Shown: in pieces, positions 25,678 through 64,000 of the stretch
How the letters are laid out: each line of letters starts with the position of its first letter
Position numbering within the stretch: position 1 is the stretch's first letter
Assembly: GCA_046290465.1 (NCBI GenBank)
Contig: JBKAGP010000001.1
Span: 3,904,001 to 3,968,000 of the forward strand
Reading direction: 5' to 3'
DNA from: Planctomycetota bacterium
GTDB taxonomy: Bacteria; Planctomycetota; UBA1135; UBA2386
Length of the DNA: 64,000 bases
The notes under the pieces: generated by a model
Database searches by the model: none
What the model was told of the DNA's origin: nothing
What the model saw: only the letters and a program-made list of their open reading frames with translations
Position numbers and translations under genes: made by a program

Positions 25678-28600
25678 TTACTTGAGCTCGAGCAGGTCGG
25701 ACCACTTGATGTCCGTGTTGATGTCAAAAGAGCGCTCGCCCGGTCGAGACTCGAGGGTCGGCGACTTCTTGTCCGCCTTGAGAGACTGGAACGGGAAGCC
25801 CGCCAGCATCGTCATCACGAGGTTGCTCGCCGACTTGGGACCGTTCGGGATGTTGCCCGCAAAGCACGAGAAGATGCTCACGTCGGGATCGAGGCCGTGC
25901 CAGTTCTTGGCGAGCGACGTCCACGCGCGCGCCTCCTTGAGGCCCGCTTCGGCCGCCTCCATGTCGGGGAACGTGCCGTCGCGATTGCCGTGTCCGCAGA
26001 CGTGCATCTTCAGGCCTCCCTGCAGGCCCGGCTTGACGATGCCCTTTCGGTCCTTGATCCACGCACCCTCGTCATCCTTGAACCACGCGCCATATTCACT
26101 CGGCGGCTTGAACCGCGTCGTGACGACCACCTCGCCGTCCTCGTCCCGGCGCGCATGGATGATCACGACGCCGTCGACGTCCTCCGTGCCGTCTATCGAC
26201 TGCTCGAAGGTCATGACCGCGATATTTCCGGCGGCGGCGTTGCCATCGTCTCCGATGATGACCACGACGGTGATCAGTCCGAGCGGGTCCGAGTGGGACA
26301 ATGGTCCGGAACCGACGAAGGCATGGGCGTTGCCCAGGTTGCAGGAATCGGCGAAGGCACCGAGCGGATCGCGGGTCAGGAAGCGTCCGATCGCGGGCGC
26401 ATAGTACCGATTGCGCATGTATGCGAGCCCGGTCGCCGAGTCCCATCGCGTGCCGTTCCACAAGAACGGCTGGCCGATCGACGACTGCGAGGCTGCACCG
26501 GACCCGGCCACGAAGACCGTCGGTGTGCCATACGGATCGTATTCGTAGGTCTCGACGACGGCGCCGGTGTCGTCCACGAGCACCGCCGTCGAATCGCGCA
26601 GCCCCTGCAGCGCATGGTAGTCGTGCCACGCGCCGGCAGCGTCACGCCGGCGGTACGCCACCAGCTCGTTGGAGGTCGCCCCCCATACGAATTGCTTCCG
26701 CGGCACCGCGGTGTTGGGCGCGCCACCGTCGAGGCCGCACTCGGCGATCTCGTTCCAGCCGTCGTAGACGTGGAAGCAGGTCTCGACGCCGACCCAGACC
26801 GATACCGATCGGCGGTCGTAGACGTCGTAGACGAACACGGCCTTCAGCTGCAGCTGACCCGGACTCGGCAGGAAGCCGGGCTTGCCGCCGCCACCGGTCG
26901 CGTTCAGCGTGATCACGCCGCCCGCGATGGATGCCCGTAGCTGGCTGCGGAACGCGGGATCCATGTGCTCCTTGAGCAGACGCCCGTAGAGGTTGGTGAC
27001 CCCCATCCGCACGTCGTCCTGCGCGTCGTCGAAGCCGTCCTGCTGGGCCTCGGCGTACTTCTCCTCGTCGTTCGCCGGCGCGTCCGGAAGGATCTCCCAG
27101 ATCTCCGACAGACGGTTGCGGTAGTCGTACTTGTAGACGAAGACTCCGTCGCAGATCAGGTTGCCGCGGCCGTCGTATTCGTATGGAATCGCCGCGCCGC
27201 CACCACCGACCGCCGGCGTCGAGACCGACGCATAGCGATTGCTCGCGCCCTGCGGGTGGCTCGCACCCTGGGTCGCGTAGTCCTGCTCGAGCAGGCCGCC
27301 GGTCGTCGCATCCTCGCGATCGAGCGAGATGCGGTTGTGCACACCGTCCATCGAGAACTGCTGGAACTGCCCGACCTGACCCGCCACGTAGCCAGCGGGG
27401 GGCGAGCCGGCCATCGTGGCGACGCCGCTCCAGGCCTTCTCGAGTCGGTGGAAGCCGTCGTAGGCGAAGCGGTCGCCGGCCGACCCGTCCACCTTGGTGT
27501 GCACCTCCTTCTCGAGGTTGCCAGCGGCGTCGTAGAGGTAGGCGAAGTCCGAGATGGTCGTCGGCGTGGGGTTGGACGCATCGGAGAACTCGTGCTCGAT
27601 GCCACCCAGGCGACCGAAGCCGTCCCAACTGAACGTCGTGTCGACCTCCGGCAGGTTGGTCCCGCCCGGCGTCAACCGCCGCGTGCGCCGACGCATGCCG
27701 GTCCAGCCATAGTCGGCCAACGGAACGTTCGGGCCGCTGAGGTCGCCGGACGTGTCCCAGTCCAGCTCGTCGAGACGGCCGCGACCGTCGCGCGTCATCG
27801 TCACGCCGAGTGGTTGTGCGAACGCGCTGCCCGCTCCGAGACCGTCGACGAAGTCCCACCCACTGCGGAACGGGTCATTGCCGACATACTCGGAGTGCAC
27901 CTCGAGCACGTTGGCGCTGGCCGCGGCGAAGTTGTAGCGCTCGTCGTGGATGCGACCGATCGAGTCCTCGCGACGATGCACGGTGCCGATCGGCACCTGG
28001 TTGGCCGGGTCCGCGAGGTAGTCGTTGATCTCGACCCGACCCAGCGCATCGCGACGGATCCAGTCGGTCACGTTCCAGCCGGAGATCTTGTTCGGCGCAC
28101 CCTCCAACCAGCGCTTGATGACGCGTCCGGCGCCATCGCGCGCAAAGCGCGTGCGCCCCTGGTCTCCGTCGTAAACGTCCGTCATCCTCGACGCGGCATC
28201 GTATACCGCGAACAGACACATATCTGCATTCGGCGCCGCGGCCGACGGCAACGCCGATGCGCCGGGCCGTTGCAGGATGAACGCTCGGCCTGCAAAATCG
28301 AAGTGTGTAGCGGTCGAATTCCCACTGTCATCGACATCCTGACGGATCGTGCGACCGTCTCCCTGGGTGGCACCCGAGTCGGTGAATATGGTCGACGTAA
28401 CGATGGAAATCGCTGCGCCATCGACCCGCGCGTGTTCGACGACGCGCCCGACGCCGTCACGGAGGTATTTGTGCACCAGGCCCTTGGGGTCGATGTGGCG
28501 ATCCAGGACACCCAGGCTGTCGTAGGCATAGGCGTGCACGAGCGGGCTGGCTTCGGTCGCACCGCGACGGGCCAGCACGACGCGACCGAACGCATCGACG

Positions 28601-31600
28601 TCGAACTCGGTCTCGAAGATCCGCAGTCCACCGAGACCTGCGTCGACCTCCCGGCGCACGACGCTCGCCACGTAGGGCGTGCCCGCGTGGTAGTCGTATT
28701 CGAGCACGTCGCCGGACTGGGACGCGCTCTGCAGCCGCCCGTGCTCGCCACATACAGGTAGGTCGTCTCGTCGAGACCGCTGCGCAACAGCCTGGCGAGC
28801 TGGGTCTGCTTCGCCGGCACGAACTGCCACGCCGTCTGCTGCACGGCCATCGGAGTGGCTCCCCCGAGGTCGCGACGGAAGGCGTCGTCCTGGGTCCAGA
28901 TCACGCGCGACAGCTGGTCGTAACGAACGGCTCGCCGCGCCAACACCTGCGTCGCGTCGCCCGTCTCGGTCTCGGTGACGCGGCCCATGCAATCGACCTC
29001 GAATGCATGCACCGCGCCGCCGGTCGAATGGGTGTAGCCGACGGGGGCGGTCGTCGACGGCTCGGTGACCGAGGTGATCGCGCCGGCAGCGTTGCGTTCG
29101 ACCACCGTCCACAGCTCGTCCGTGCCCGAACCGTCGTGGTTGGCGGCGACCTGCCGCGTGGCGGTGACCTCGAGGAACTCGTTGACGAAGCTCGCCGGAG
29201 ATCGCACCTCGTCGACGTTCTGCGGGTCGCGCGTCACCGTCTCGAACACGGTGCCGTAGCCGTCCTGCACGATCGTCGTCACCCCGCCGCCGGGCCGCGT
29301 CATCGTCGCCAGGCGCCCGTCCGCGCCGTAGGACAGCTTGGTGACCAGGTGTTCGACCCCGCCGCCCGGCTCGTCCAACGGCTTGCGGTCGACGTAGACC
29401 TCCATCAGTTGCGTGTGGTGATAATGGTACTGCGTCTCGATCCAATCGCGGGCGGCCGGACCGCCTGCCCCGTGCCGCGTCGGCTTGCTGCCGTTCGAAG
29501 CCAGGTTGTTCCGCTGCACCACGGTGCGGTGGCCGAAGCGGTCGTAGTAGGCGCGCGCATCGCGCAGGAACCCGCCGCTGGTGCTGGTCACCTTGCGCAC
29601 GGCCGGACCCGACGCGCACAGCTCGTAGACGACGACCGCCGGCTGCCCCGCGAGGGCATGGTGGGTCAGCTGTTCGACGTCCCCGATCGCGCTGAGCGCG
29701 TAGTCGGTCTGGTCGGTCGAACGCTGCAGAACCCGCGTCAGGCGCCCGTTGGCGTCGTACGAGTAGACGGTCCGCAACCCGTCGCCGTCCTCGCTCCGGC
29801 GCACCTGCCCGTTGACGACGCCCTGCTTGGCGAGGCCACCGGGTGCATTCGAGAGGTTGCGCCACCAGGTCTCGGACACCGCCGAGCCCGGCACGCTCGT
29901 GTTGGGCGCGTTGGTGAGCGAGTCCTGGATCCGCACATCGCTGATGGTCTTGACCGTCGTGCCCGGGATCTGGCCGTGCTGGACCGCATCGACCCGATCC
30001 AGCATGTCGGTGTGCGTATAGGTGTAGGTGCCATCGGGCGTCGCTTCGGTGTGCGGCAACCAGGCGCCCATACCTGGCCGGCTCCCGCAGCCTGCGTGTA
30101 GGTACCGTCCACTCGACGGTGACGGATACGGGCCGGCGTCCCCGTGCTCGGGATTGGGGGCGCGGTAGGTCTTCAGCAGCTTGCTGCCCGCATAGTACTC
30201 GTACTCGTGAGAACGGGTGACGGTCGCGCCGTCCCGCGTCGATCGCACGTCCATCCGGATCGGCTGGCGACACGCGCACGTCGCGTCGGCGTAGACGTAG
30301 TACCGTTCGATCTGCTCGGGCTCGACACCGGCGGCCGGGTTGCCCGCTCCGCTCGGATACGCGGTGGCACGCGGACGCCCGTCGGCGTCGTCGCTCGCCG
30401 TCACGAACTCCGAGTAGAGCCGGCCCGACCACTTGTCGTAGTCGAAGCGGTACGTCGAGCCGCCCACCTTCTGGACCTCGATCGACTGCATGGTCGTGCC
30501 GGTCAGCACCTCGGTGGACCGCGTCGCGACCGGATAGCTCGCGACCAGCTTCTCGCCGGTCATCGGCCGCTCCTGGGACCCGAATCGACCATCGGCGAGG
30601 TAGGTCGTCTCGAGGATCTTGCGATCCGGGTGCGACGTCGTGACCAGCGCCTGCGCGAACGGGGCGCCGCTGTGCACCTTGTGCCACTCGCAGAGCGACG
30701 GCGGCACGTTGGCGGCGCCGACGTCGTAGACGAACTCGTGCACGATCTGCGCCGTCACTTCGGCGGCGGCATCGATGACGATCGCATCCTGGCCCGTGCT
30801 GTCGTTCAGCACCTTGCGAGACGAGGAGTAGACGCGATGCAGGCGTCGGCCGAAGTAGCGACCGCCGGTGACGCTGGTCGCACCCTGGAACACGATGCCC
30901 CACGTGCGCGCGACCGCCTCCGGCGGGCTCGCGCCGTTCTGTTGGTAGCGGATCTCCAGGCAGTCCTGCCCGGACCACGCCCACGAGGGGCTCCAGTCGA
31001 ACACCTGGGTCAGCCCCGAGGCGAACTGGACCTCCGCTAGCTGATCCTGCGTGTTCCAGACGAACGACGACGTGTTGTCGTACGGGTCGCGAACGCTCGT
31101 CAGCCGCCACAGCGTGCGCGGCGGACTGGGCTGGTAGGACGACGAGTACGGGTTGAAGGTCTCGTACTGCGCCACGGTGCCGTCGACGTGCCGGACCTCG
31201 GCCCGCCCCGCGGTCGCGTCGTGCCACAGCTGCGCCCCCGACAGGTTGCTCGTGAACCGGTAGACCATCGTCGGCAGCGGCGCCGCGGCATCGGCCGCCG
31301 CACGCTTGCGTCGCTTCGAGCCCTTCGACGAGCCACCCTGCGTCTGCCCGATGCCCGCGTTGCTGAACACCGCGGTCGTCTGCGGGTTGGCGCCGGTCTC
31401 GAGAGGTCCGCCGTATTGGTAGAAGGCCGTGCCGGCCGCGTGCTCGACCTGCATCAGGTAGAGGCCCGGCATGCTGCCGGGTCGTGGCTGCACGGCGGAG
31501 TCCAGGTCGAGCAGCGCCGCCGACATGTCCGGCACCGGCACCGACGGCTTGAGCGGGGTGCCCGAGCCCTGCCACGTCGGGTAGCTGACGTCGAACAGGA

Positions 31601-31976
31601 GCCACCGGCCGTAGAGGCGGGCGACGCCCATCGAGCCGTCGTGCATCTCGGGCATCGGCAGCCGCCGCACCACGGAGCCATAGGTGGAGACGTCGGTGCT
31701 GCCCATGCCGACGTCGCGCAGCACGACCGAGTGGTCGCCGGTCGTGCTGGCGCGCTGCGGGTTGCGAGCGACCAGCGGATCCTGCGCGAAGACGACGCCC
31801 CCGAGCTGCACCAGGTCCGACGGCGCGGCCGGGGTGAACTGCGTGCGGACCTCTTCGCCGCCCAGCATCAACGAGAGCGCGTAGAGGTCGTTGACGGACA
31901 CGGGTTGGCAGCACTCGGTGGTCGGCTGCTGCGCGATCGCGGCGGTGCCGAGCAGGGCGAATGCCAGACTGCGCAT
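25678..31976 (-). CDS. Signal-peptide RHS/YD-repeat protein with C-terminal caspase-fold-like domain; 1-nt frameshift near 28740
   Basis: N-half in frame of ORF 28182..32141, C-half in frame of ORF 25678..32259; YD repeats, core YMRNRYY..GRFLTRDP, PLSHSDPLGL; alternative start 32024. Confidence 0.88.
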
Positions 31977-52964: not shown

Positions 52965-53051
52965 CTAGGAGCGCGTCCATGAAGCGGACGCGCTGCCAAC
53001 CGTGATTTCGGAAGAGGCGTGCACGCGTGCGGACGGGGCTTTGCCCGCTAG
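52965..53051 (-). repeat. Solo copy of the 83-bp CTAG-bounded palindromic element
   Basis: Reverse complement matches the 56325 unit with internal substitutions; CTAG at both ends. Confidence 0.9.
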
Positions 53052-56083: not shown

Positions 56084-56324
56084 GGGCTGGCGGGGTGTTG
56101 CGGGTGTCGACGGTTCGGGGTGCGGATCGGAGCACCTGCGGATCGTGGCGCCTGACCATCCGCGCGACGGGCGCACCCGTCAAGGCGCCGTCGAGACCGG
56201 CCGATCCGGCGGATCGTTCGAGATGGCGACCGGGATACGGGCCGACGGTGGCAACGCCGACGAGGTCATCGACGAACGAGAAGCGCGCCTCCTGCGTCGC
56301 GCCCGCATCCGCCTGACGCGCGCC

Positions 56325-56743
56325 CCTAGCGGGCAAAGCCCCGTCCGCACGCGTACTCGCCACTTCCGCGATCACGGTTGGCAGCGCGTCCACTACATGG
56401 ACGCGCTCCTAGCGGGCAAAGCCCCGTCCGCACGCGTACTCGCCGCTTCCGCGATCACGGTTGGCAGCGCGTCCACTACATGGACGCGCCGAGCGGGCAA
56501 AGCCCCGTCCGCACGCGTACTCGCCGCTTCCGCGATCACGGTTGGCAGCGCGTCCACTACATGGACGCGCTCCTAGCGGGCAAAGCCCCGTCCGCACGCG
56601 TACTCGCCGCTTCCGCGATCACGGTTGGCAGCGCGTCCACTACATGGACGCGCTCCTAGCGGGCAAAGCCCCGTCCGCACGCGTACTCGCCGCTTCCGCG
56701 ATCACGGTTGGCAGCGCGTCCACTACATGGACGCGCTCCTAGC
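56325..56743 (+). repeat. Five tandem copies of the 81-83 bp CTAG-bounded element (REP/MITE-like)
   Basis: Units start at 56325, 56408, 56489, 56572, 56655; each has hairpin AGCGCGTCCA-N5-TGGACGCGCT. Confidence 0.95.
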
Positions 56744-57755
56744 AGAGAATGCGCGTGACCTCTTCGCGCACGATCGGGATCAGCAGATCGGCGAGCTGGC
56801 GGTTGGCGTAGAACGCGAACGACATGTTGGTCGTGATGTCGAGCGGCGCGTCCAGTGGCTGGCCGAACGGATCGCAAACGACGCAACCGGCCTGCTGCCC
56901 GACGAGCCACGTCGACAGGTCGTACGGCCGGCACGCCAGCGCCGACTCGATGCCGAGCTTGCGGTAGACGAGCGGTCGCAGGTCGAGCACGAAGCGGTCG
57001 CGTCCGAGCATGACCTCGGCGAGTTGGCCGCCGGTCGAGATGTATTGGTCCGTGTAGACCTCGGCCTTCTCCGGATTCCATCCCCCAAGCGCCCGTGTGA
57101 GGATCGCCTCGTCGAGCTCGGCGATCAGCGTCTTGCCGCCGGGGAAGAAGTTGGCGACCGACGCGAAGCCGTGCTTCACGTGGTCTTTCGTGCTCGGCAG
57201 GATGCGCAGCGGGGCGGTCGTGTCGCGCACCACGTCGTGCCGTTCTGCCTGCGCCGGCTGGCCCGCCACCGCCCAGACGACATCACTGATGTGCTGCCGG
57301 GTCGTCGGCAGTTCGGTCATCACCGCGACCTCGACGTCCTGCAGCCGCGTCTCGGAACCGTTGTCCGGCGCCGCCCCCATCAGGCACCAGCCGCTGCGCT
57401 TGTCGAACATCAGCCCACGCGTCCCGTCGATCGGATCGACGAGCAACCGAAACGGCGGCCCCCCGACCCCCGGCCGCCCGAACTCGACCCCGTCCGTCGG
57501 CAACCCTTCGCCCACCAGCCGGAAGTGCTGCTCCTCGCCCCACCGCTCGCAGTAGCGCAGCAGTATCTCCTCGACCTCGACATCGATCCCGAAGATCGTG
57601 TCGCCTTCGTCGTCGCGCGCGGCCCGCGCCATGTGCTCGATCGTCTGCGTCTCCATGTGCTGACGAAGCGCGCTGCGGATCTCGACCTGGAGGTCGCGCA
57701 GCCGCGGAACGAGGGTGCGATGGTCGAGTTTGGTCATGGTCGAAGGCGCCGGCAT
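56739..57755 (-). CDS. Inositol monophosphatase/FIG family protein
   Basis: GDTIFGID, VGEG, LVDPIDGTRGL, PYD motifs. Confidence 0.85.
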   Translation of the reverse strand: MPAPSTMTKLDHRTLVPRLRDLQVEIRSALRQHMETQTIEHMARAARDDEGDTIFGIDVEVEEILLRYCERWGEEQHFRLVGEGLPTDGVEFGRPGVGGPPFRLLVDPIDGTRGLMFDKRSGWCLMGAAPDNGSETRLQDVEVAVMTELPTTRQHISDVVWAVAGQPAQAERHDVVRDTTAPLRILPSTKDHVKHGFASVANFFPGGKTLIAELDEAILTRALGGWNPEKAEVYTDQYISTGGQLAEVMLGRDRFVLDLRPLVYRKLGIESALACRPYDLSTWLVGQQAGCVVCDPFGQPLDAPLDITTNMSFAFYANRQLADLLIPIVREEVTRILC

Positions 57756-57776: not shown

Positions 57777-57853
57777 GGGCCCTTAGCTCAATTGGTCAGA
57801 GCCGGCGGCTCATACCCGCTAGGTTGCAGGTTCGAGTCCTGCAGGGCCTACCA
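57777..57853 (+). tRNA. tRNA with CAT anticodon, most like tRNA-Ile2
   Basis: Cloverleaf: GGGCCCT/AGGGCCT acceptor, TAGCTCAATTGG D-arm, GGCGG-CTCATAC-CCGCT, GGTTCGAGTCC, ACCA end. Confidence 0.93.
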
Positions 57854-57917
57854 CTCGGATCGTGCGCGGATGGCGCGTAGTTGCCGATTCGCGGGGGGTG
57901 CGCTCTTCGGGAAGGGC

Positions 57918-57982
57918 GAGTGTGCAACAGAGTGTGCAATGGCCTCGGTCACAAGCTGGCACGGCGTGGCACAACGTGGCAC
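57918..57982 (+). repeat. Putative integrase arm-type / excisionase binding repeats
   Basis: GAGTGTGCAA at 57918 and 57930; TGGCAC at 57957, 57967, 57977. Confidence 0.55.
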
Positions 57983-58774
57983 GGTCGGGCGGGTGGTTCC
58001 CGGGGACGGGAAGTAGCACCTGCAGGGCAAGACCTGCAGGTGGCGGGCGGATTCCGGCGGCGTGCCCGCGATGCAGGACTGGGGCCGGCCCGTCGGGCTT
58101 GAGCCGTCGTAGAGCCCAACGGGCAGCACAAGGGCCGCGCCCCGGTCAGACCGCGGCTTGAACACGAAGGGCCAGAGGCGGCGCCAGGGGGCGAGCCGGA
58201 GCTACACGAAGGGCAGGACCGCGGCTATCGCGACCGGAGTCGCTGCCAAGGCCGCCCGCACGCCAGATTCGACTCGGATGCCCGCGCGCGTCAGCGCCAC
58301 AGGCTGAGCTTCGCCCTACCCGCTGCTGGCTGCGCTTCCATGAGAAGGTCACGAACCATGCGGATCAGCTCGCGGAGATCGCGAGAGTCGCGACGTTCGA
58401 AGTCGACCGAGGCCTGCCGCGGGGGCAAGTTGGCACTCATGGCATGTGGAGGCGCGCGGCTGAGCTGAGACGATCGGCCGAGCCCTGGCCGCCTGTTCAC
58501 GGTTTCGGCAGGTCCTGAGCAGACGTCGAACCGGCTGCCCTTCCACACCCACAAGCTGTGGGCGCCGAGACTTGAAGCGAGCCACGAACTGTCCACCGCA
58601 AGCAAATCACGGTCCGGCTCGCACCAGGAACGGAACTACACGGGCCAGCCGAATTCCTCCCAGGCAGGCGTCGGCCTCTCTTCGGGAGCGGTTTAGGCTG
58701 GCGGCAGAAGTCGGCGAGCTGTTCTTGTCGAGTTCCGTCTAAACGACGTTAGCCAGAGGAGTGACACCAAACGC

Positions 58775-59491
58775 GTGGACCTAGCACCGCTGTTCTTCCG
58801 GCTCTGCGCTGAATCCAGTGATGGCGCCACAACCTACCTTGGGACGGCGTTTCCTGTAGCTCCGGGCGGTGGGCTTCTGACGTGCCGCCACGTCGTTAAG
58901 TCGCTTCCTCGTGATTCCATCCTGGCCGTGCACGACTACCGTGGTGTTCGGCTTGCACAAGTCAGTGCCGAGCCTGTCTACCCGAGTGACCCTCTGGTCG
59001 ACTTGGCGTTTCTGCCCGATACGCTCTCGTCGACCAAGCCGGAGTTCTTTCCGATCCTGGTTCCAAGTGATCTCAAGGTGGGAGAGGACGTCTATTCGTT
59101 CGGCTTCTTCGCCTTAGGTGGAGGCGACTCAGAGATCGAGCACGGCTTCTTCGCCGGCAAGATCGTTAGCTTCTTCGGCCATCAGAATGTTGTTGGCCGA
59201 ACCTCGATGCTGTTGCCCTATGCCGTTCTCGAGGGCATGTCCGGCAGCCCGGTGTTGACCTACCACAATGGCCCCAAGCTCGTGGGTCTTGCCATCGGCA
59301 ACCGCGCCTCTCGCATCCTTGCTCATGAGGTTTCATCCTTCGAGGACGATCAAGAGCGCTTCACCGAGACCATCCATCGGGTAGTCGAGTTCGGCGTGGC
59401 TCTCCACGCCGCAGCGATCATAGGGTTCCTCAGCGAGGCTGGTGTTCCTTGCGTTGTTTCGAGTAAGCGAGTGCAAGTGCCGGGGCTATGA
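58775..59491 (+). CDS. Trypsin-like serine protease without signal peptide (cassette 1)
   Basis: Triad TCRHV / VDLAFL / EGMSGSP. Confidence 0.88.
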   Translation: MDLAPLFFRLCAESSDGATTYLGTAFPVAPGGGLLTCRHVVKSLPRDSILAVHDYRGVRLAQVSAEPVYPSDPLVDLAFLPDTLSSTKPEFFPILVPSDLKVGEDVYSFGFFALGGGDSEIEHGFFAGKIVSFFGHQNVVGRTSMLLPYAVLEGMSGSPVLTYHNGPKLVGLAIGNRASRILAHEVSSFEDDQERFTETIHRVVEFGVALHAAAIIGFLSEAGVPCVVSSKRVQVPGL

Positions 59492-59496
59492 TCCCT

Positions 59497-59560
59497 GGCT
59501 AACTAGTCTCAGCAGCTGACGGGGCTACGCCCCGCAGCTGAGAGACCAAAGACGTTGGGC
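59497..59560 (+). other. Integron attC-like site 1
   Basis: GGCTAAC...GTTGGGC with internal palindrome, 5 bp after the stop codon. Confidence 0.85.
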
Positions 59561-59583
59561 CGACGTCCCGGTCTGCAAGCACA

Positions 59584-60135
59584 ATGGAAACTGGTTCTTG
59601 GATCGGAGTGGTGGCGTTGACGTCGATTGCCTTTGGCATGGTCGGATTCGTTGCCGGTAAGTCGCTCGCTGACGAGCGGATCGTCGAGAAGCGGGTCGAG
59701 GTTCCCGTGCCAGTCGAGACGCCCGCGGAGCCTCCGCCGGTAGATGCTAGCGCCGTCGCATTCGACATGAAGAGCCGCGAGTTGGCGGTTGCGTTGGCAG
59801 ACACGCTTGACGGTGTGGCAGACAATCTCAGCGAGACCCAGATCGCGGACTACGACGCACTGCTGAGCCGCCCACCGGCACCGCTAAAGACGGAGGCTGC
59901 GATCAAGATCCGTGAGGCGTTAGATGGCCTGCGGCGCTTGCGCGACGATCTGCGGTTTGGCTCGCGGAAAGCCCTGCATCGCTTGGCTGAGCAGATGGAT
60001 GGGATCGAGCAGGACCTTGCACGAATCGCGGAGCAAGCGGCCCGAGACCTTGATCGGGCCGGTGTTGCGGCGGCAGGGACAATTCTCCGGAAGCTAGCAC
60101 AGGACTTTCGAGCACGTGGAAAGGAGCGCAAGTAG
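59584..60135 (+). CDS. N-terminal TM helical hypothetical protein (cassette 2)
   Basis: Fills the space between two attC sites; hydrophobic N-terminus. Confidence 0.75.
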   Translation: METGSWIGVVALTSIAFGMVGFVAGKSLADERIVEKRVEVPVPVETPAEPPPVDASAVAFDMKSRELAVALADTLDGVADNLSETQIADYDALLSRPPAPLKTEAAIKIREALDGLRRLRDDLRFGSRKALHRLAEQMDGIEQDLARIAEQAARDLDRAGVAAAGTILRKLAQDFRARGKERK

Positions 60136-60143
60136 CATGCGCG

Positions 60144-60206
60144 GCCCAACTACACGCAGGAGCTGACGGCGCTACGCGCCGCAGCTCAGCGTGACGGACG
60201 TTGGGA
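60144..60206 (+). other. Integron attC-like site 2
   Basis: GCCCAAC...GTTGGGA, homologous to attC 1 with compensatory stem changes. Confidence 0.85.
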
Positions 60207-60218
60207 CGACAGGTCAAC

Positions 60219-60464
60219 ATGCGCCGCATTCAGGTTCAGCTGGGACATCCGCGCGAGGTGATTGTCAGCCGCATACGCCGAGGAGAGCGACGATCGACGA
60301 TCGAGGCGCCGCAGTCTTCGCTAGCACCACGCCTCGCCAAGACCGACCGGGGGCAACGTCACATTCTGCAGGGAATGCGACAACCGCAGCTCCGAAGGAT
60401 AGATGCGTCCTCATGCGTTGGCCAGCGGGCTGCGAGCACGGCGCGGCTGTGCTTCATCATCTAA
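60219..60464 (+). CDS. Possible short or degenerate third cassette ORF
   Basis: ATG 12 bp after attC 2; no recognisable motif and no closing attC seen. Confidence 0.25.
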   Translation: MRRIQVQLGHPREVIVSRIRRGERRSTIEAPQSSLAPRLAKTDRGQRHILQGMRQPQLRRIDASSCVGQRAASTARLCFII

Positions 60465-60506: not shown

Positions 60507-61508
60507 TCAATTGAGAGGATCTCCAGTGTCGGGGTTGAGTTGGCGGAGAGGGGCAATCTGCATCGGCACACCCATGATCCCACGAGTCTCGTCGAAAGCC
60601 GCCTCGACCGTCCACTCCAGCCGCACCGAACGCCGGTCTGTAGTCCACGGCCGATGCTCGGCGTAGTGCGACACGGGCCGTTCACGAGGTGCAACTCGCG
60701 AGGCGAGGACAACAGCGCAATCGAAGGTCGCTCGAAACACCATCTGAACTGCTCCGCTGTCAGGGCCTCTCAAGAGGTCCGCCTCCTTGTCTCTGACACC
60801 CAAGACCATCAGCTCGATCCCCAAAGGGCCGGAAACCCCCATTGCTCGGAGGATCTCAGCGTCCTCAGCGATGGAGATCCACCCATCGAGGGCAGCGTCG
60901 AGGTGCTGCTGCTCGACCGGCTGCGCCGCCGGGACGGGTGCAAGGTGGTCCTTCAGAAAGTCGCGAGTGCAACGCGTCTCAAGATCTGCACTGCACCCGC
61001 GAGCCTTTGCGACAGCATCGAGCGAGGATGGCAGCGATCCCCCTCCACCGAAGTCCCTGTGATTGTCGGTAAGGAACGAACCGGCACCCGCTCTGGTGGT
61101 CTTGACATGATCTACGAACGTCACCCAGTTGATGAAGTCGCGATAGCCGGCTCCTTCCTTTTTGAAGGGCTGTCCGCTTTTCAGATCTGCCTGAATGACG
61201 TCGCGAACATCTACCGTGATCGGCAGAGTGATGACGCCAGCGCCGGCTAAGTGCTCTGCGAACTGCTCCTTCAGGGCCGGCGGATCTGGCAAGACGTCTG
61301 CCGGAAAGTAGTGGCCGTACTTCTTGCCAACCTCGCGACGGTGCTTCACGTAGTTGGCTTCAAGCTCGTCCAGGACAAGCGTGGAGGTCACCACGTTGTG
61401 GCCGCTCTGCTTGAGTCGGCTCAAGTCACCGGCAAATATGGGGGACCGGCCCTTCGACATCAATTCCGTGGTGTCGATGAACACAACCCGCTTTGGCGTG
61501 GCAGCCAT
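60507..61508 (-). CDS. PIN-domain ribonuclease (DUF4935-like)
   Basis: VFIDT, VLDELE, GYRDFINW, FLTDNHRDF acidic PIN motifs. Confidence 0.85.
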   Translation of the reverse strand: MAATPKRVVFIDTTELMSKGRSPIFAGDLSRLKQSGHNVVTSTLVLDELEANYVKHRREVGKKYGHYFPADVLPDPPALKEQFAEHLAGAGVITLPITVDVRDVIQADLKSGQPFKKEGAGYRDFINWVTFVDHVKTTRAGAGSFLTDNHRDFGGGGSLPSSLDAVAKARGCSADLETRCTRDFLKDHLAPVPAAQPVEQQHLDAALDGWISIAEDAEILRAMGVSGPLGIELMVLGVRDKEADLLRGPDSGAVQMVFRATFDCAVVLASRVAPRERPVSHYAEHRPWTTDRRSVRLEWTVEAAFDETRGIMGVPMQIAPLRQLNPDTGDPLN

Positions 61509-61673: not shown

Positions 61674-62891
61674 CTATACCGCCTCACCGAACATCCTCGG
61701 CACCGGGAACGTCCCCGGCAGCTCCCGGAACAGGTCGTCCTCCCCGAGTTCCCCGTAGAGGTCCATGGTCAGCCGGATGTCGCTGTGCCGCAGCACCTGC
61801 TGGATGACCTTCGGATGGACCTGCATTTCGATGAGGATGCGGGCGCAGCTCTTGCGGAGCGCGTGGAAGTCGACGCGCTTGCTCGTCGGGCTCTTCTGCG
61901 GGATCAGCCCGGCGAAGGCCGCGTCCTTGCGCACCAACTCTGCCGGCTTGTCAGGCATCTGGAAGACGTGGTCCGTCTCCTGCACCGGCCCGAGGTAGCG
62001 GCGCACCTGCGACTCGCTGCGCCGCGTCCGCATCGCCCGCAGCGCCTCTGCGACGAACCCCTGCAGCGGGATGCGCGCGTCGTCGCCGTTCTTCGTGAAG
62101 TCGCCGGCCAGACGGACGCAGGGCTTGTCGCCGTCGAGCGACACGTCCTCCCACCGGATCGAGGCGCACTCGCTCGCTCGGAAGCCGGTGGTCAGGACGA
62201 ACCAGTAGAGCACCTGCCGGTCTCGGACCTTCTCGTCGTAGCCCTTCTGCGCCTGCACGCCGCCGTAGACGCGCTCGGCTTCGAACCGCGCCCAGGCGGC
62301 CTCGACGAGTTGCTCGGCCTCGCTGAACGTGAACCCTACCCTCTTGAACACGCGGTGCCGGTCCCGCTTCGGGGTCCGGACGCGGATCGACTGGAACGGG
62401 TTCCGGTCCCAGCGGCCGGTCCGCTCGAGCCAGCGCCCGAAGCCTCTGAGGGCTGAGGCGTGGTGGTCTCGCGTCTTGGCGGCGCGCTTCTTTCGAATCG
62501 ACTCCAGCCATCGCTCGGCGCCCGGGGCCGTGATCGAGGGGATCGTGCCCACCTTGGCGAAGCTGACGAAGGCGCGAAGCTGGCGCACGGTCTCGCGAAC
62601 GTAGCGCGGCGCCCGCTGCTCCACCGACATGTGCTCGCGGTATTCGGCGATCAGGCGCGAGAGCGGCACCTCGCGCCACTCGGCGAACGGATCCACGTGG
62701 CCGAGCTTGCGGCGCCCGATCTCGCGCAGGGTCTCGGCGAGGAAGTCCTGCGCGACGCGCTTGTCCTTCGTGCGCGTCGACTTGCGGCGCGTCACCCCAG
62801 CCTCGTCGTCGTAGACGATGTGCCAGAAGGGGCTGTTCGGCCGCTTGTAGGGGTTGCCGACCCAAGCGTTCTCGGCGCTCTTCTTCGCCAC
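61674..62891 (-). CDS. Phage-type tyrosine recombinase/integrase
   Basis: TGFRASE, TKNG, FHALRKS, LRHSD, MDLY catalytic set; N-terminal arm-binding-like region. Confidence 0.95.
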   Translation of the reverse strand: MAKKSAENAWVGNPYKRPNSPFWHIVYDDEAGVTRRKSTRTKDKRVAQDFLAETLREIGRRKLGHVDPFAEWREVPLSRLIAEYREHMSVEQRAPRYVRETVRQLRAFVSFAKVGTIPSITAPGAERWLESIRKKRAAKTRDHHASALRGFGRWLERTGRWDRNPFQSIRVRTPKRDRHRVFKRVGFTFSEAEQLVEAAWARFEAERVYGGVQAQKGYDEKVRDRQVLYWFVLTTGFRASECASIRWEDVSLDGDKPCVRLAGDFTKNGDDARIPLQGFVAEALRAMRTRRSESQVRRYLGPVQETDHVFQMPDKPAELVRKDAAFAGLIPQKSPTSKRVDFHALRKSCARILIEMQVHPKVIQQVLRHSDIRLTMDLYGELGEDDLFRELPGTFPVPRMFGEAV

Positions 62892-62893
62892 AG

Positions 62894-63148
62894 CTACGCG
62901 CTCGCCTCCATGAACCTCAGCACGGCCGCGGCGGCGAGCAGCGTGCGCCCGCGCACGCGGCGCGGCTCGGGGAATCCTGATCGTGGGTCGGCCATCAACC
63001 GCCACACAGTGCGCGTGCTAAGGCGGCACATGAAGGCGGCTTCCGGCACAGACCAGAACATCTTCTCGCGCAGCGACTTCTCGTCGAAGAGTGCGGTTTC
63101 GGGACTGGCTGCCGGGGGCGCCGCATGGATGTCGGTGCGTTCGGTCAC
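62894..63148 (-). CDS. AlpA/excisionase-like HTH protein
   Basis: SVPEAAFMCRLSTRTVWRL...FPEPRRVRGR; directly upstream of integrase. Confidence 0.85.
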   Translation of the reverse strand: MTERTDIHAAPPAASPETALFDEKSLREKMFWSVPEAAFMCRLSTRTVWRLMADPRSGFPEPRRVRGRTLLAAAAVLRFMEASA

Positions 63149-63675: not shown

Positions 63676-64000
63676 TCATCGGGCGGCCTCCTCAAGGTGG
63701 TAGAGGCTCGTTCCGCCTGAGCCACGACGCCGCACGACGAATCGCCCAACAGGGCGGTCCCTCAGCGGCCCAAGGACTCGGCGGGAGAAGCGAGCCGCGT
63801 GCCCGCTGTCCGGGCCGGCAAAGGCAGATTCAAAGATGCCAAGCGAACGAGCCGTCTCCATTGCTTCGGTGGACTTGACCTCGGCCTTGCCGTGCTCGTT
63901 CCACCATTTGTCGACCAGGGCCTCGGCGTCGGCGTTGAAGTCGTCCCCCTGACGAACCCACGACGAGTAGTTCATCATCCATGCGGTCGCCCCAGCGTGA
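63676..64000 (-). CDS. C-terminal part of a probable replication (primase/helicase-type) protein; start outside window
   Basis: Frame is open to the window edge; function guessed only from position. Confidence 0.45.
   Translation of the reverse strand, partial: HAGATAWMMNYSSWVRQGDDFNADAEALVDKWWNEHGKAEVKSTEAMETARSLGIFESAFAGPDSGHAARFSRRVLGPLRDRPVGRFVVRRRGSGGTSLYHLEEAAR

Follow-up and report, generated by a model that had tools for sequence, protein, structure and literature searches.

The window, the whole stretch of 64,000 nucleotides analysed here, corresponds to C1:3904001-3968000 of a 6.59-Mb single-contig genome. It contains a tRNA gene with a CAT anticodon (57777..57853, plus strand; Met according to ARAGORN) that is the integration target of a mobile element. 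This gene is one of the three CAT-anticodon tRNAs of the genome, and elongator Met and lysidine-modified Ile are both possible identities. The 23 bp at 57831..57853 (C1:3961831, plus strand), a copy of the tRNA 3' end, form the att core that constitutes attL of the element, E1, and an exact copy at C1:4011787 closes E1 at 49,979 bp. E1 thus encodes an integrase and is bordered on each side by the direct repeat of the tRNA 3' end, as expected of a tRNA-integrated element. Other copies of the core are found at C1:4033493 and 4045538, with a degenerate one at 4053017, and these three junctions beyond E1 define a tRNA-headed tandem cluster of around 91 kb. GC content goes from 70% upstream of the tRNA to 59-64% past it. 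Relatives of E1 are inserted at tRNA-Met, -Val and -Arg genes. Elsewhere in the window, a palindromic, REP-like intergenic repeat is present in about seven 83-bp tandem copies (56236-56819), with an inverted single copy 3.3 kb off (52965-53051). Besides, a 3.8-kb segment with an RHS-repeat gene occurs as inverted copies, 99.7% identical, at window positions 28153-31952 and at C1:3974520-3978323, one of them within E1.

The left end of E1 (57854..57990, plus strand) contains short direct repeats, likely integrase arm sites, and such left-end repeats are present in 35 of the 91 genomes of the host's family. All the element genes discussed next lie on the minus strand: a PIN_12-domain gene that represents non-cassette cargo (60507..61508), the 405-aa tyrosine integrase of E1, which is not an IntI (61674..62891), a small HTH_17-like protein (62894..63148; E 0.007, below the cut-off) that is a probable excisionase, and the 3' end of an 847-aa Prim-Pol/PriCT_2 replication protein starting outside the window (63676..64000). 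Matches to the integrase at E <= 1e-30 occur in 12 of 61 genomes. In total, the gene content of E1 comprises the integrase, the small HTH protein, Prim-Pol/PriCT_2, a XerC-like second recombinase of 290 aa (REC2, at C1:3972356-3973228), DUF5681 and a ParB-methyltransferase, together with an IS21-type transposase pair and varied cargo. The set of integrase, regulator or excisionase and primase-replicase module that is typical of PICI-like elements is there, with the HTH match below the cut-off. No capsid, terminase or relaxase families, and no packaging or conjugation genes, were found when 63 island ORFs were compared with Pfam and the first 22 E1 ORFs with PHROG (leaving aside three border-spanning ORFs). 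An Atlas search returned no function for DUF5681, which may be a small terminase.

Between the left end and the PIN_12 gene lies a short array of two cassettes on the plus strand, and all seven motifs that the initial annotation had listed there are where it placed them. Cassette 1 (58749..59554) carries an ORF of 238 aa (58775-59491) and ends in attC1 (59497..59560); cassette 2 (59555..60200) carries an ORF of 183 aa (59584-60135), followed by attC2 (60144..60206). The cassette ends are fully complementary, as previously noticed: GTTAGCC at 58748 with GGCTAAC at 59497, and GTTGGGC at 59554 with GCCCAAC at 60144. The cassette 1 protein has a trypsin-like peptidase domain (PF13365) and 241 homologues, the best of them 58% identical, while PADLOC gave partial protease-domain matches only. 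The ORF of cassette 2 had no Pfam, NCBIfam, PHROG, PADLOC or usable Atlas match. This cargo, a trypsin-like gene and a gene of no assigned family, is unremarkable. A candidate start of a third cassette, without attC, runs from 60201 to 60357 (plus strand; GTTGGGA, with an ATG at 60219) and stops at a palindrome that we call PAL. A third attC near 60330-60424 was considered and rejected, the PAL hairpin being the sole fold there.

Both attC sites fold as expected on the bottom strand, with z-scores of -4.44 for attC1 and -5.82 for attC2, and none of 200 shuffles was as good. An iterated search from both sites placed them in a family of around 21 attC sites in the host. The compensatory changes between the two sites, seen from the start, extend to this family: in an alignment of 19 of its members, both-sided changes occur at nine of 16 pairs, and the covariation score of 0.388 exceeds that of shuffles (0.134) and of slid pairs (no more than 0.054), with the structure behind the score derived from the same 19 sequences. 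An Rfam scan matched the tRNA alone and left the attC sites unmatched; our own attC model, R1, was built from these very sites, so that its scores for them are circular. As parsed, 17 of the 19 host sites have a spacer of 10-11 nt ahead of the right-hand GTT (the two others were mis-parsed), and the corresponding spacer in the attC of class 1 cassettes is shorter, about 7 nt.

Regarding their distribution, host attC loci besides the window are found at 2.14 Mb (five sites), 4.87 Mb (nine), 4.35 Mb (two to three) and 5.70 Mb (two to three). A comparison with a chromosomal integron, suggested in the initial annotation, shows that the attC family of the window is the one found at the only intI of the genome, 1.82 Mb away. 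The family also lies behind true intI genes at 11 other loci and is present in 69 of the 91 genomes of the host's family. attC1 has three differences from a host attC at 4.87 Mb, and the nearest of 99 foreign sites has seven; for attC2, the nearest host site has nine differences and the nearest foreign site two. That the site in first position is nearest to the host and the second nearest to foreign sites would be a hint of loading within the host lineage, and a weak one, as it comes from one pair and host attC sites in general are often closer to foreign sites. Joints near attC1 and attC2 in sequencing-run contigs were considered as products of cassette excision, and other attC copies explain them best. 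Runs X3 and X4, whose shares were small, were left out of the evidence. No sign of cassette or element excision was seen in the contigs of the probable source sequencing run, contigs being a form of data that drops rare forms.

No intI is adjacent to the array, and the E1 integrase is indeed not an IntI, with 25 bits against an IntI cut-off of 265. An intI in the part of E1 that had not been seen at first, which would have changed the reading of the locus, was not found: REC2, encoded there, reaches 77.5 bits and is devoid of the IntI insertion. Matches to the intI model in E1 are limited to these two non-IntI recombinases and one weak match in the primase frame. Likewise, protein and DNA HMMs detected no intI remnant from the tRNA to the array head (57831-58750). 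The single IntI of the host (C1:2142588-2143613), 1.82 Mb from the window array, scores 421 bits against the same cut-off and has the R-K-H-R-H-Y residues and the IntI insertion; judging from its sequence, it is full-length and looks intact. IntI is above the cut-off in 42 of the 91 genomes of the family.

The 2.14-Mb array sits after this IntI. Across 29 foreign intI loci and that of the host, attC hits occur only downstream of intI and on the same strand. The nine-attC array at 4.87 Mb (C1:4869800-4876400), which also carries a PADLOC PDC-S21 match, has no intI; its head is a copy of the host attI with around 50 nt of a decayed intI 3' end. Duplicated cassettes are found in both arrays, one of 373 bp in the intI-less array and one of 451 bp in the intI-linked array. 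Cassette duplication is a footprint expected of IntI, and the duplicated cassette of the 4.87-Mb array fits an IntI acting at a distance. As a separate observation, the cassette arrays of three genomes include, between attC sites, genes for tyrosine recombinases with 30-35% identity to IntI (L219:8211, L256:5440, L257:14687 and 17745), which are thus cassette-borne. In addition, one conserved sequence immediately follows the attI GTT in five intI loci (L080, L089, L094, L096 and L100) and recurs behind an attC in L083; it is likely to be either the right flank native to the empty site or a first cassette common to these loci.

At the head of the array, a predicted attI module without intI occupies 58636..58750 (plus strand). 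Its parts are a degenerate upstream palindrome recognised by eye (58636-58653), a TAGGCTG motif within 58692-58700 and a simple site (58737-58750), with the crossover G|TT placed at 58748/58749. The profiles behind this prediction were built from 19 intI-linked attI of other genomes, with no host sequence; these are the 19 of 29 fetched intI loci that fit a core pattern of our own choice. In those training loci that were checked by eye, the attI GTT heptamer complemented the first attC. Using a GTT-anchored matrix with a seeded upstream motif, the window site ranked first among the 133,285 GTT sites of the genome. With an unseeded upstream motif it ranked second, and four other candidate host attI ranked 1, 17, 20 and 45, while the core motif alone gave rank 38. 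Its score of 20.0 falls within the leave-one-out range of the training sites (12.7 to 36.8), and 15 attC junctions used as controls scored from -7 to -20. In a whole-genome search with an unanchored HMM, the site came third and in register (E about 1), after the host integron's attI and the site heading the 4.87-Mb array. The likeness to an attI core that the initial annotation had guessed at is confirmed, and it is stronger than first supposed.

Two other origins of this site have to be weighed. Experiments have demonstrated insertion by IntI at a secondary attG site, which has been put forward as the source of small CALINs (Loot et al., bioRxiv 10.1101/2022.09.11.507474), and two cassettes are present in 1362 of 2961 CALINs according to that preprint. 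One could argue that cassettes were likewise inserted here at a chance GWT consensus in the island. A random GWT target, however, would not reach rank 1 or 2 among 133,285 sites on an attI profile trained on foreign genomes, and with an attI-like target we deem such an insertion highly improbable. Even more improbable to us is that a lost first cassette left its attC here in degenerate or collapsed form: GTCTAAAC does resemble the left core of some host attC, and GAC-GTT comes next, as at attC right ends, but the 'longer degenerate attC-like fold' claimed for 58630-58738 did not hold (z -1.46, 13 of 200 shuffles as good), the attC model gives no match, and the attI profile gives this site 20.0 but true attC junctions -7 to -20. 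We read the stretch at 58630-58738 as the upstream part of the predicted attI module.

The window attI has no BLAST match to the host attI, and its best similarity to a foreign attI is weak (z 3.3). Among 301 genomes of the order, no close homologue of the region was found, with chance-level matches only. The window attI is of a different type from that of the host, and the host IntI may recognise it poorly. A scan for Pc-like promoters upstream of the array, covering the sigma-70 type, gave no sites. Taken together, the array contains two or more attC sites, according to their folding, covariation and complementary cassette ends, no intI or intI pseudogene nearby, and an attI at its head by profile. 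By definition it is a CALIN, resembling an integron without its enzyme; with no adjacent intI, it is not a complete integron.

PAL, the palindrome at which the array stops (60358..60381, minus strand), is 24 bp long with a 9-6-9 layout, which suggests a site of a tyrosine recombinase, probably of the XerC-like REC2. It recurs throughout the element family. A matrix derived from foreign copies gave six strong matches in the host: the window copy and those at C1:3973560, 4005725, 4049222, 4051262 and 1618899, five of which belong to the tRNA cluster, the sixth being next to a REC2 remnant. In eight of the ten informative foreign cases (13 hits, less two without upstream room and one duplicate) and in both host cases, PAL is found 81-411 nt upstream of REC2. 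In E1 and in the element of genome G013, two inverted copies enclose the integrase-to-REC2 core. In five of six element-borne arrays, PAL is within about 50-400 nt of the array end; the chance of this is around 7% for each array, given the density of 18 per 263 kb in the genus, and the cases are related. None was found in 20 loci fetched with wider context elsewhere in the clade. PAL may be dif-like. A role as the dif of the host chromosome is unlikely: the host copies are in the island cluster or by a recombinase remnant, with the maximum of the skew found at 0.75 Mb.

Arrays with attI are also present in other elements. In the same cluster, the sister element E3 (C1:4033493-4045560) has no integrase, and its left end is 97% identical to that of E1 over 142 bp. 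E3 carries its own, different attI around 415 bp from the att core, with the crossover at C1:4033909; it is the top match of the genome (E 0.002) to an HMM from five foreign sites. Directly after it, an ORF, the first cassette, is cut by a DDE_Tnp_1_4 transposase gene. Between E1 and E3, the element E2 (C1:4011787-4033515) carries many defence-type genes: PifA (E 1e-108), a SIR2-like STAND NTPase, AlbA_2 and DUF4062.

To look beyond the host, we scanned 1.2 Mb around element ends, covering 82 att-junction clusters in 20 genomes (clusters are not equivalent to elements, and many contigs are short), and found four arrays near junctions. In G013, an attI and a cassette lie between the integrase and att, with the left attC core alone surviving; in G002 they are located between junctions; in G001 they are 4 kb beyond the last junction, at a contig end, so that they are only presumably part of an element. 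G076 has three attC inside a full element, in which attI was not detected.

The initial annotation had described a satellite-like element with a cassette landing pad. Part of this stands, as the attI without intI is real by profile and a similar cargo of attI plus cassettes recurs in the element family: attI is in two elements here and three elsewhere, a sixth has an attC array, and PAL adjoins five of the six. A dedicated, conserved landing pad is nevertheless largely refuted, and we consider it very unlikely. An attI was found near three of 31 junction clusters of the same genus and none of 51 from other genera (the latter including one array without detected attI), so that most relatives have neither attI nor attC. 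Moreover, the attI differ in sequence, position and orientation among elements, six relatives have the integrase abutting the att site or separated from it by small genes alone, and a close strain (run X2) with a 96% identical integrase carries different cargo, without attI or cassettes. The attI is no core part of the element and seems to have been picked up by some of these elements.

Most orphan attI for which wider context was available also adjoin ordinary chromosomal genes, outside such elements, which again speaks against a dedicated pad; the loci were picked by similarity, and no prevalence can be derived from them. One attI type is present in seven copies in G011, two in G002 and a single one each in G001 and in G009, never with intI in the fetched flanks, and the one IntI of G011 is linked to another attI type. 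Among 16 further array loci, a head attI was detectable in seven (one of them an attC-attI hybrid) and not in nine, some of which end at contig edges. The hybrid site (L215:700-780, G009:C109), within an array, joins an attC left half to an attI right half. For 21 orphan attI, we compared the GTT heptamer with the first attC: 11 match at 7/7 and three at 6/7, three are unreadable and four have no attC recognised by the model. The whole first cassette is common to only one pair among these 21. Two orphan attI keep around 50 nt of the intI 3' end, so that intI loss gave rise to at least some of these sites. A spread of attI as a cassette excised at the GTT of its upstream palindrome was not supported: the homology borders of the orphan copies vary from 63 to 285 nt, with two extending into the intI 3' end and several past the palindrome.

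According to these results, the window array is best explained as an attI-headed CALIN that is cargo of a 50-kb tRNA-integrated element and was loaded in trans by IntI, a reading that we regard as reasonably probable. An IntI in trans, of the present or an earlier host, would recombine circular cassettes into the window attI; the E1 integrase would excise the whole unit at the 23-bp core, and the cassettes would hitchhike if E1 moves. The window attI could be one of many scattered orphan copies of the clade, acquired by some elements and not fixed in them. The step of which we are least sure is how the attI segment joined the element, possibly through the XerC-like REC2 acting at PAL. In these bacteria, a distant single enzyme probably serves several orphan docking sites.

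The main competitor is that the array is a dead remnant, a piece of a foreign integron with its attI and two cassettes that the island took up once as ordinary cargo and whose loading and unloading have ended. The attI type unlike that of the host points in this direction, as do the short array with its apparently truncated third unit and the IS-broken cassette of E3. The two orphan attI with intI 3' ends show that intI loss does occur, and the standard model explains CALINs by intI loss or translocation (PMC11389934). On the other hand, every attI motif and both attC of the window are intact, attC1 is closest to host sites, and orphan attI of one type carry differing first cassettes across places and genomes. 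All in all, we find a dead remnant unlikely, if a serious contender, and retain loading in trans. A bolder extension of the latter is a two-tier capture, in which the XerC-like recombinase of the islands gathers modules at PAL, orphan attI included, and the IntI of each new host reloads them, the island then being a mobile integron without integrase that exchanges cassettes among species; this we put forward as speculative and rather doubtful.

E1 resembles PICI-like satellites and integrative mobilisable elements, which combine a tRNA-targeting tyrosine integrase, a small HTH protein, a primase-polymerase and variable cargo and accumulate in tandem at one tRNA. It differs from both in its 50 kb, the XerC-like REC2, the DUF5681 and ParB-methyltransferase genes and the lack of any capsid, terminase, portal or relaxase match. 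PAL resembles pdif and Xer-site modules, in which cargo junctions are marked by a palindrome whose spacer has 6 nt; unlike pdif, it adjoins a XerC-like gene encoded by the element and would not rely on host XerCD.

The closest known integrons are the chromosomal 'inverted integrase' group, with attI downstream of a co-oriented intI (PMC3575428), and an attI downstream of intI is also mentioned for Archaea in PMC9668308. The host integron and the examined relatives have this layout, and the window attI and attC belong here, with the difference that the window attI is without intI. With SALIN/attG, as described by Loot et al., our array shares its small size, its location away from intI and the proposed use of IntI in trans, but its target is a true attI by profile and not a secondary GWT site.

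CALINs have been reported, as have their use in trans and their occurrence on mobile elements (PMC4889954, PMC11389934, PMC9668308 and bioRxiv 10.1101/2025.06.18.660453), and their mobilisation in trans is described in PMC4889954 and PMC11389934, the latter with a 'hitcher' view of the Ares-Arroyo type. We found no report of attI-headed CALINs in tRNA islands, or of several attI per intI, in a full-text literature that mostly covers papers outside subscription and without supplements. The definition of CALIN is silent on attI because the detection tool knows attI for classes 1-3 only, and the attI profile built here makes the question testable in a clade where standard tools miss these sites. 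CALINs are usually seen as decayed integrons or accidental insertions; an intact attI at the head would turn some of them into possible extra capture sites for one distant integrase and, on a mobile island, into a route for chromosomal cassettes between genomes without intI. The window array is like a CALIN, as defined in these sources, in its two attC, the absence of intI nearby and the IntI elsewhere in the replicon; it differs in keeping a complete attI, in being one of several attI-headed arrays per genomic intI and in that some of these arrays are carried by a tRNA-integrated element.
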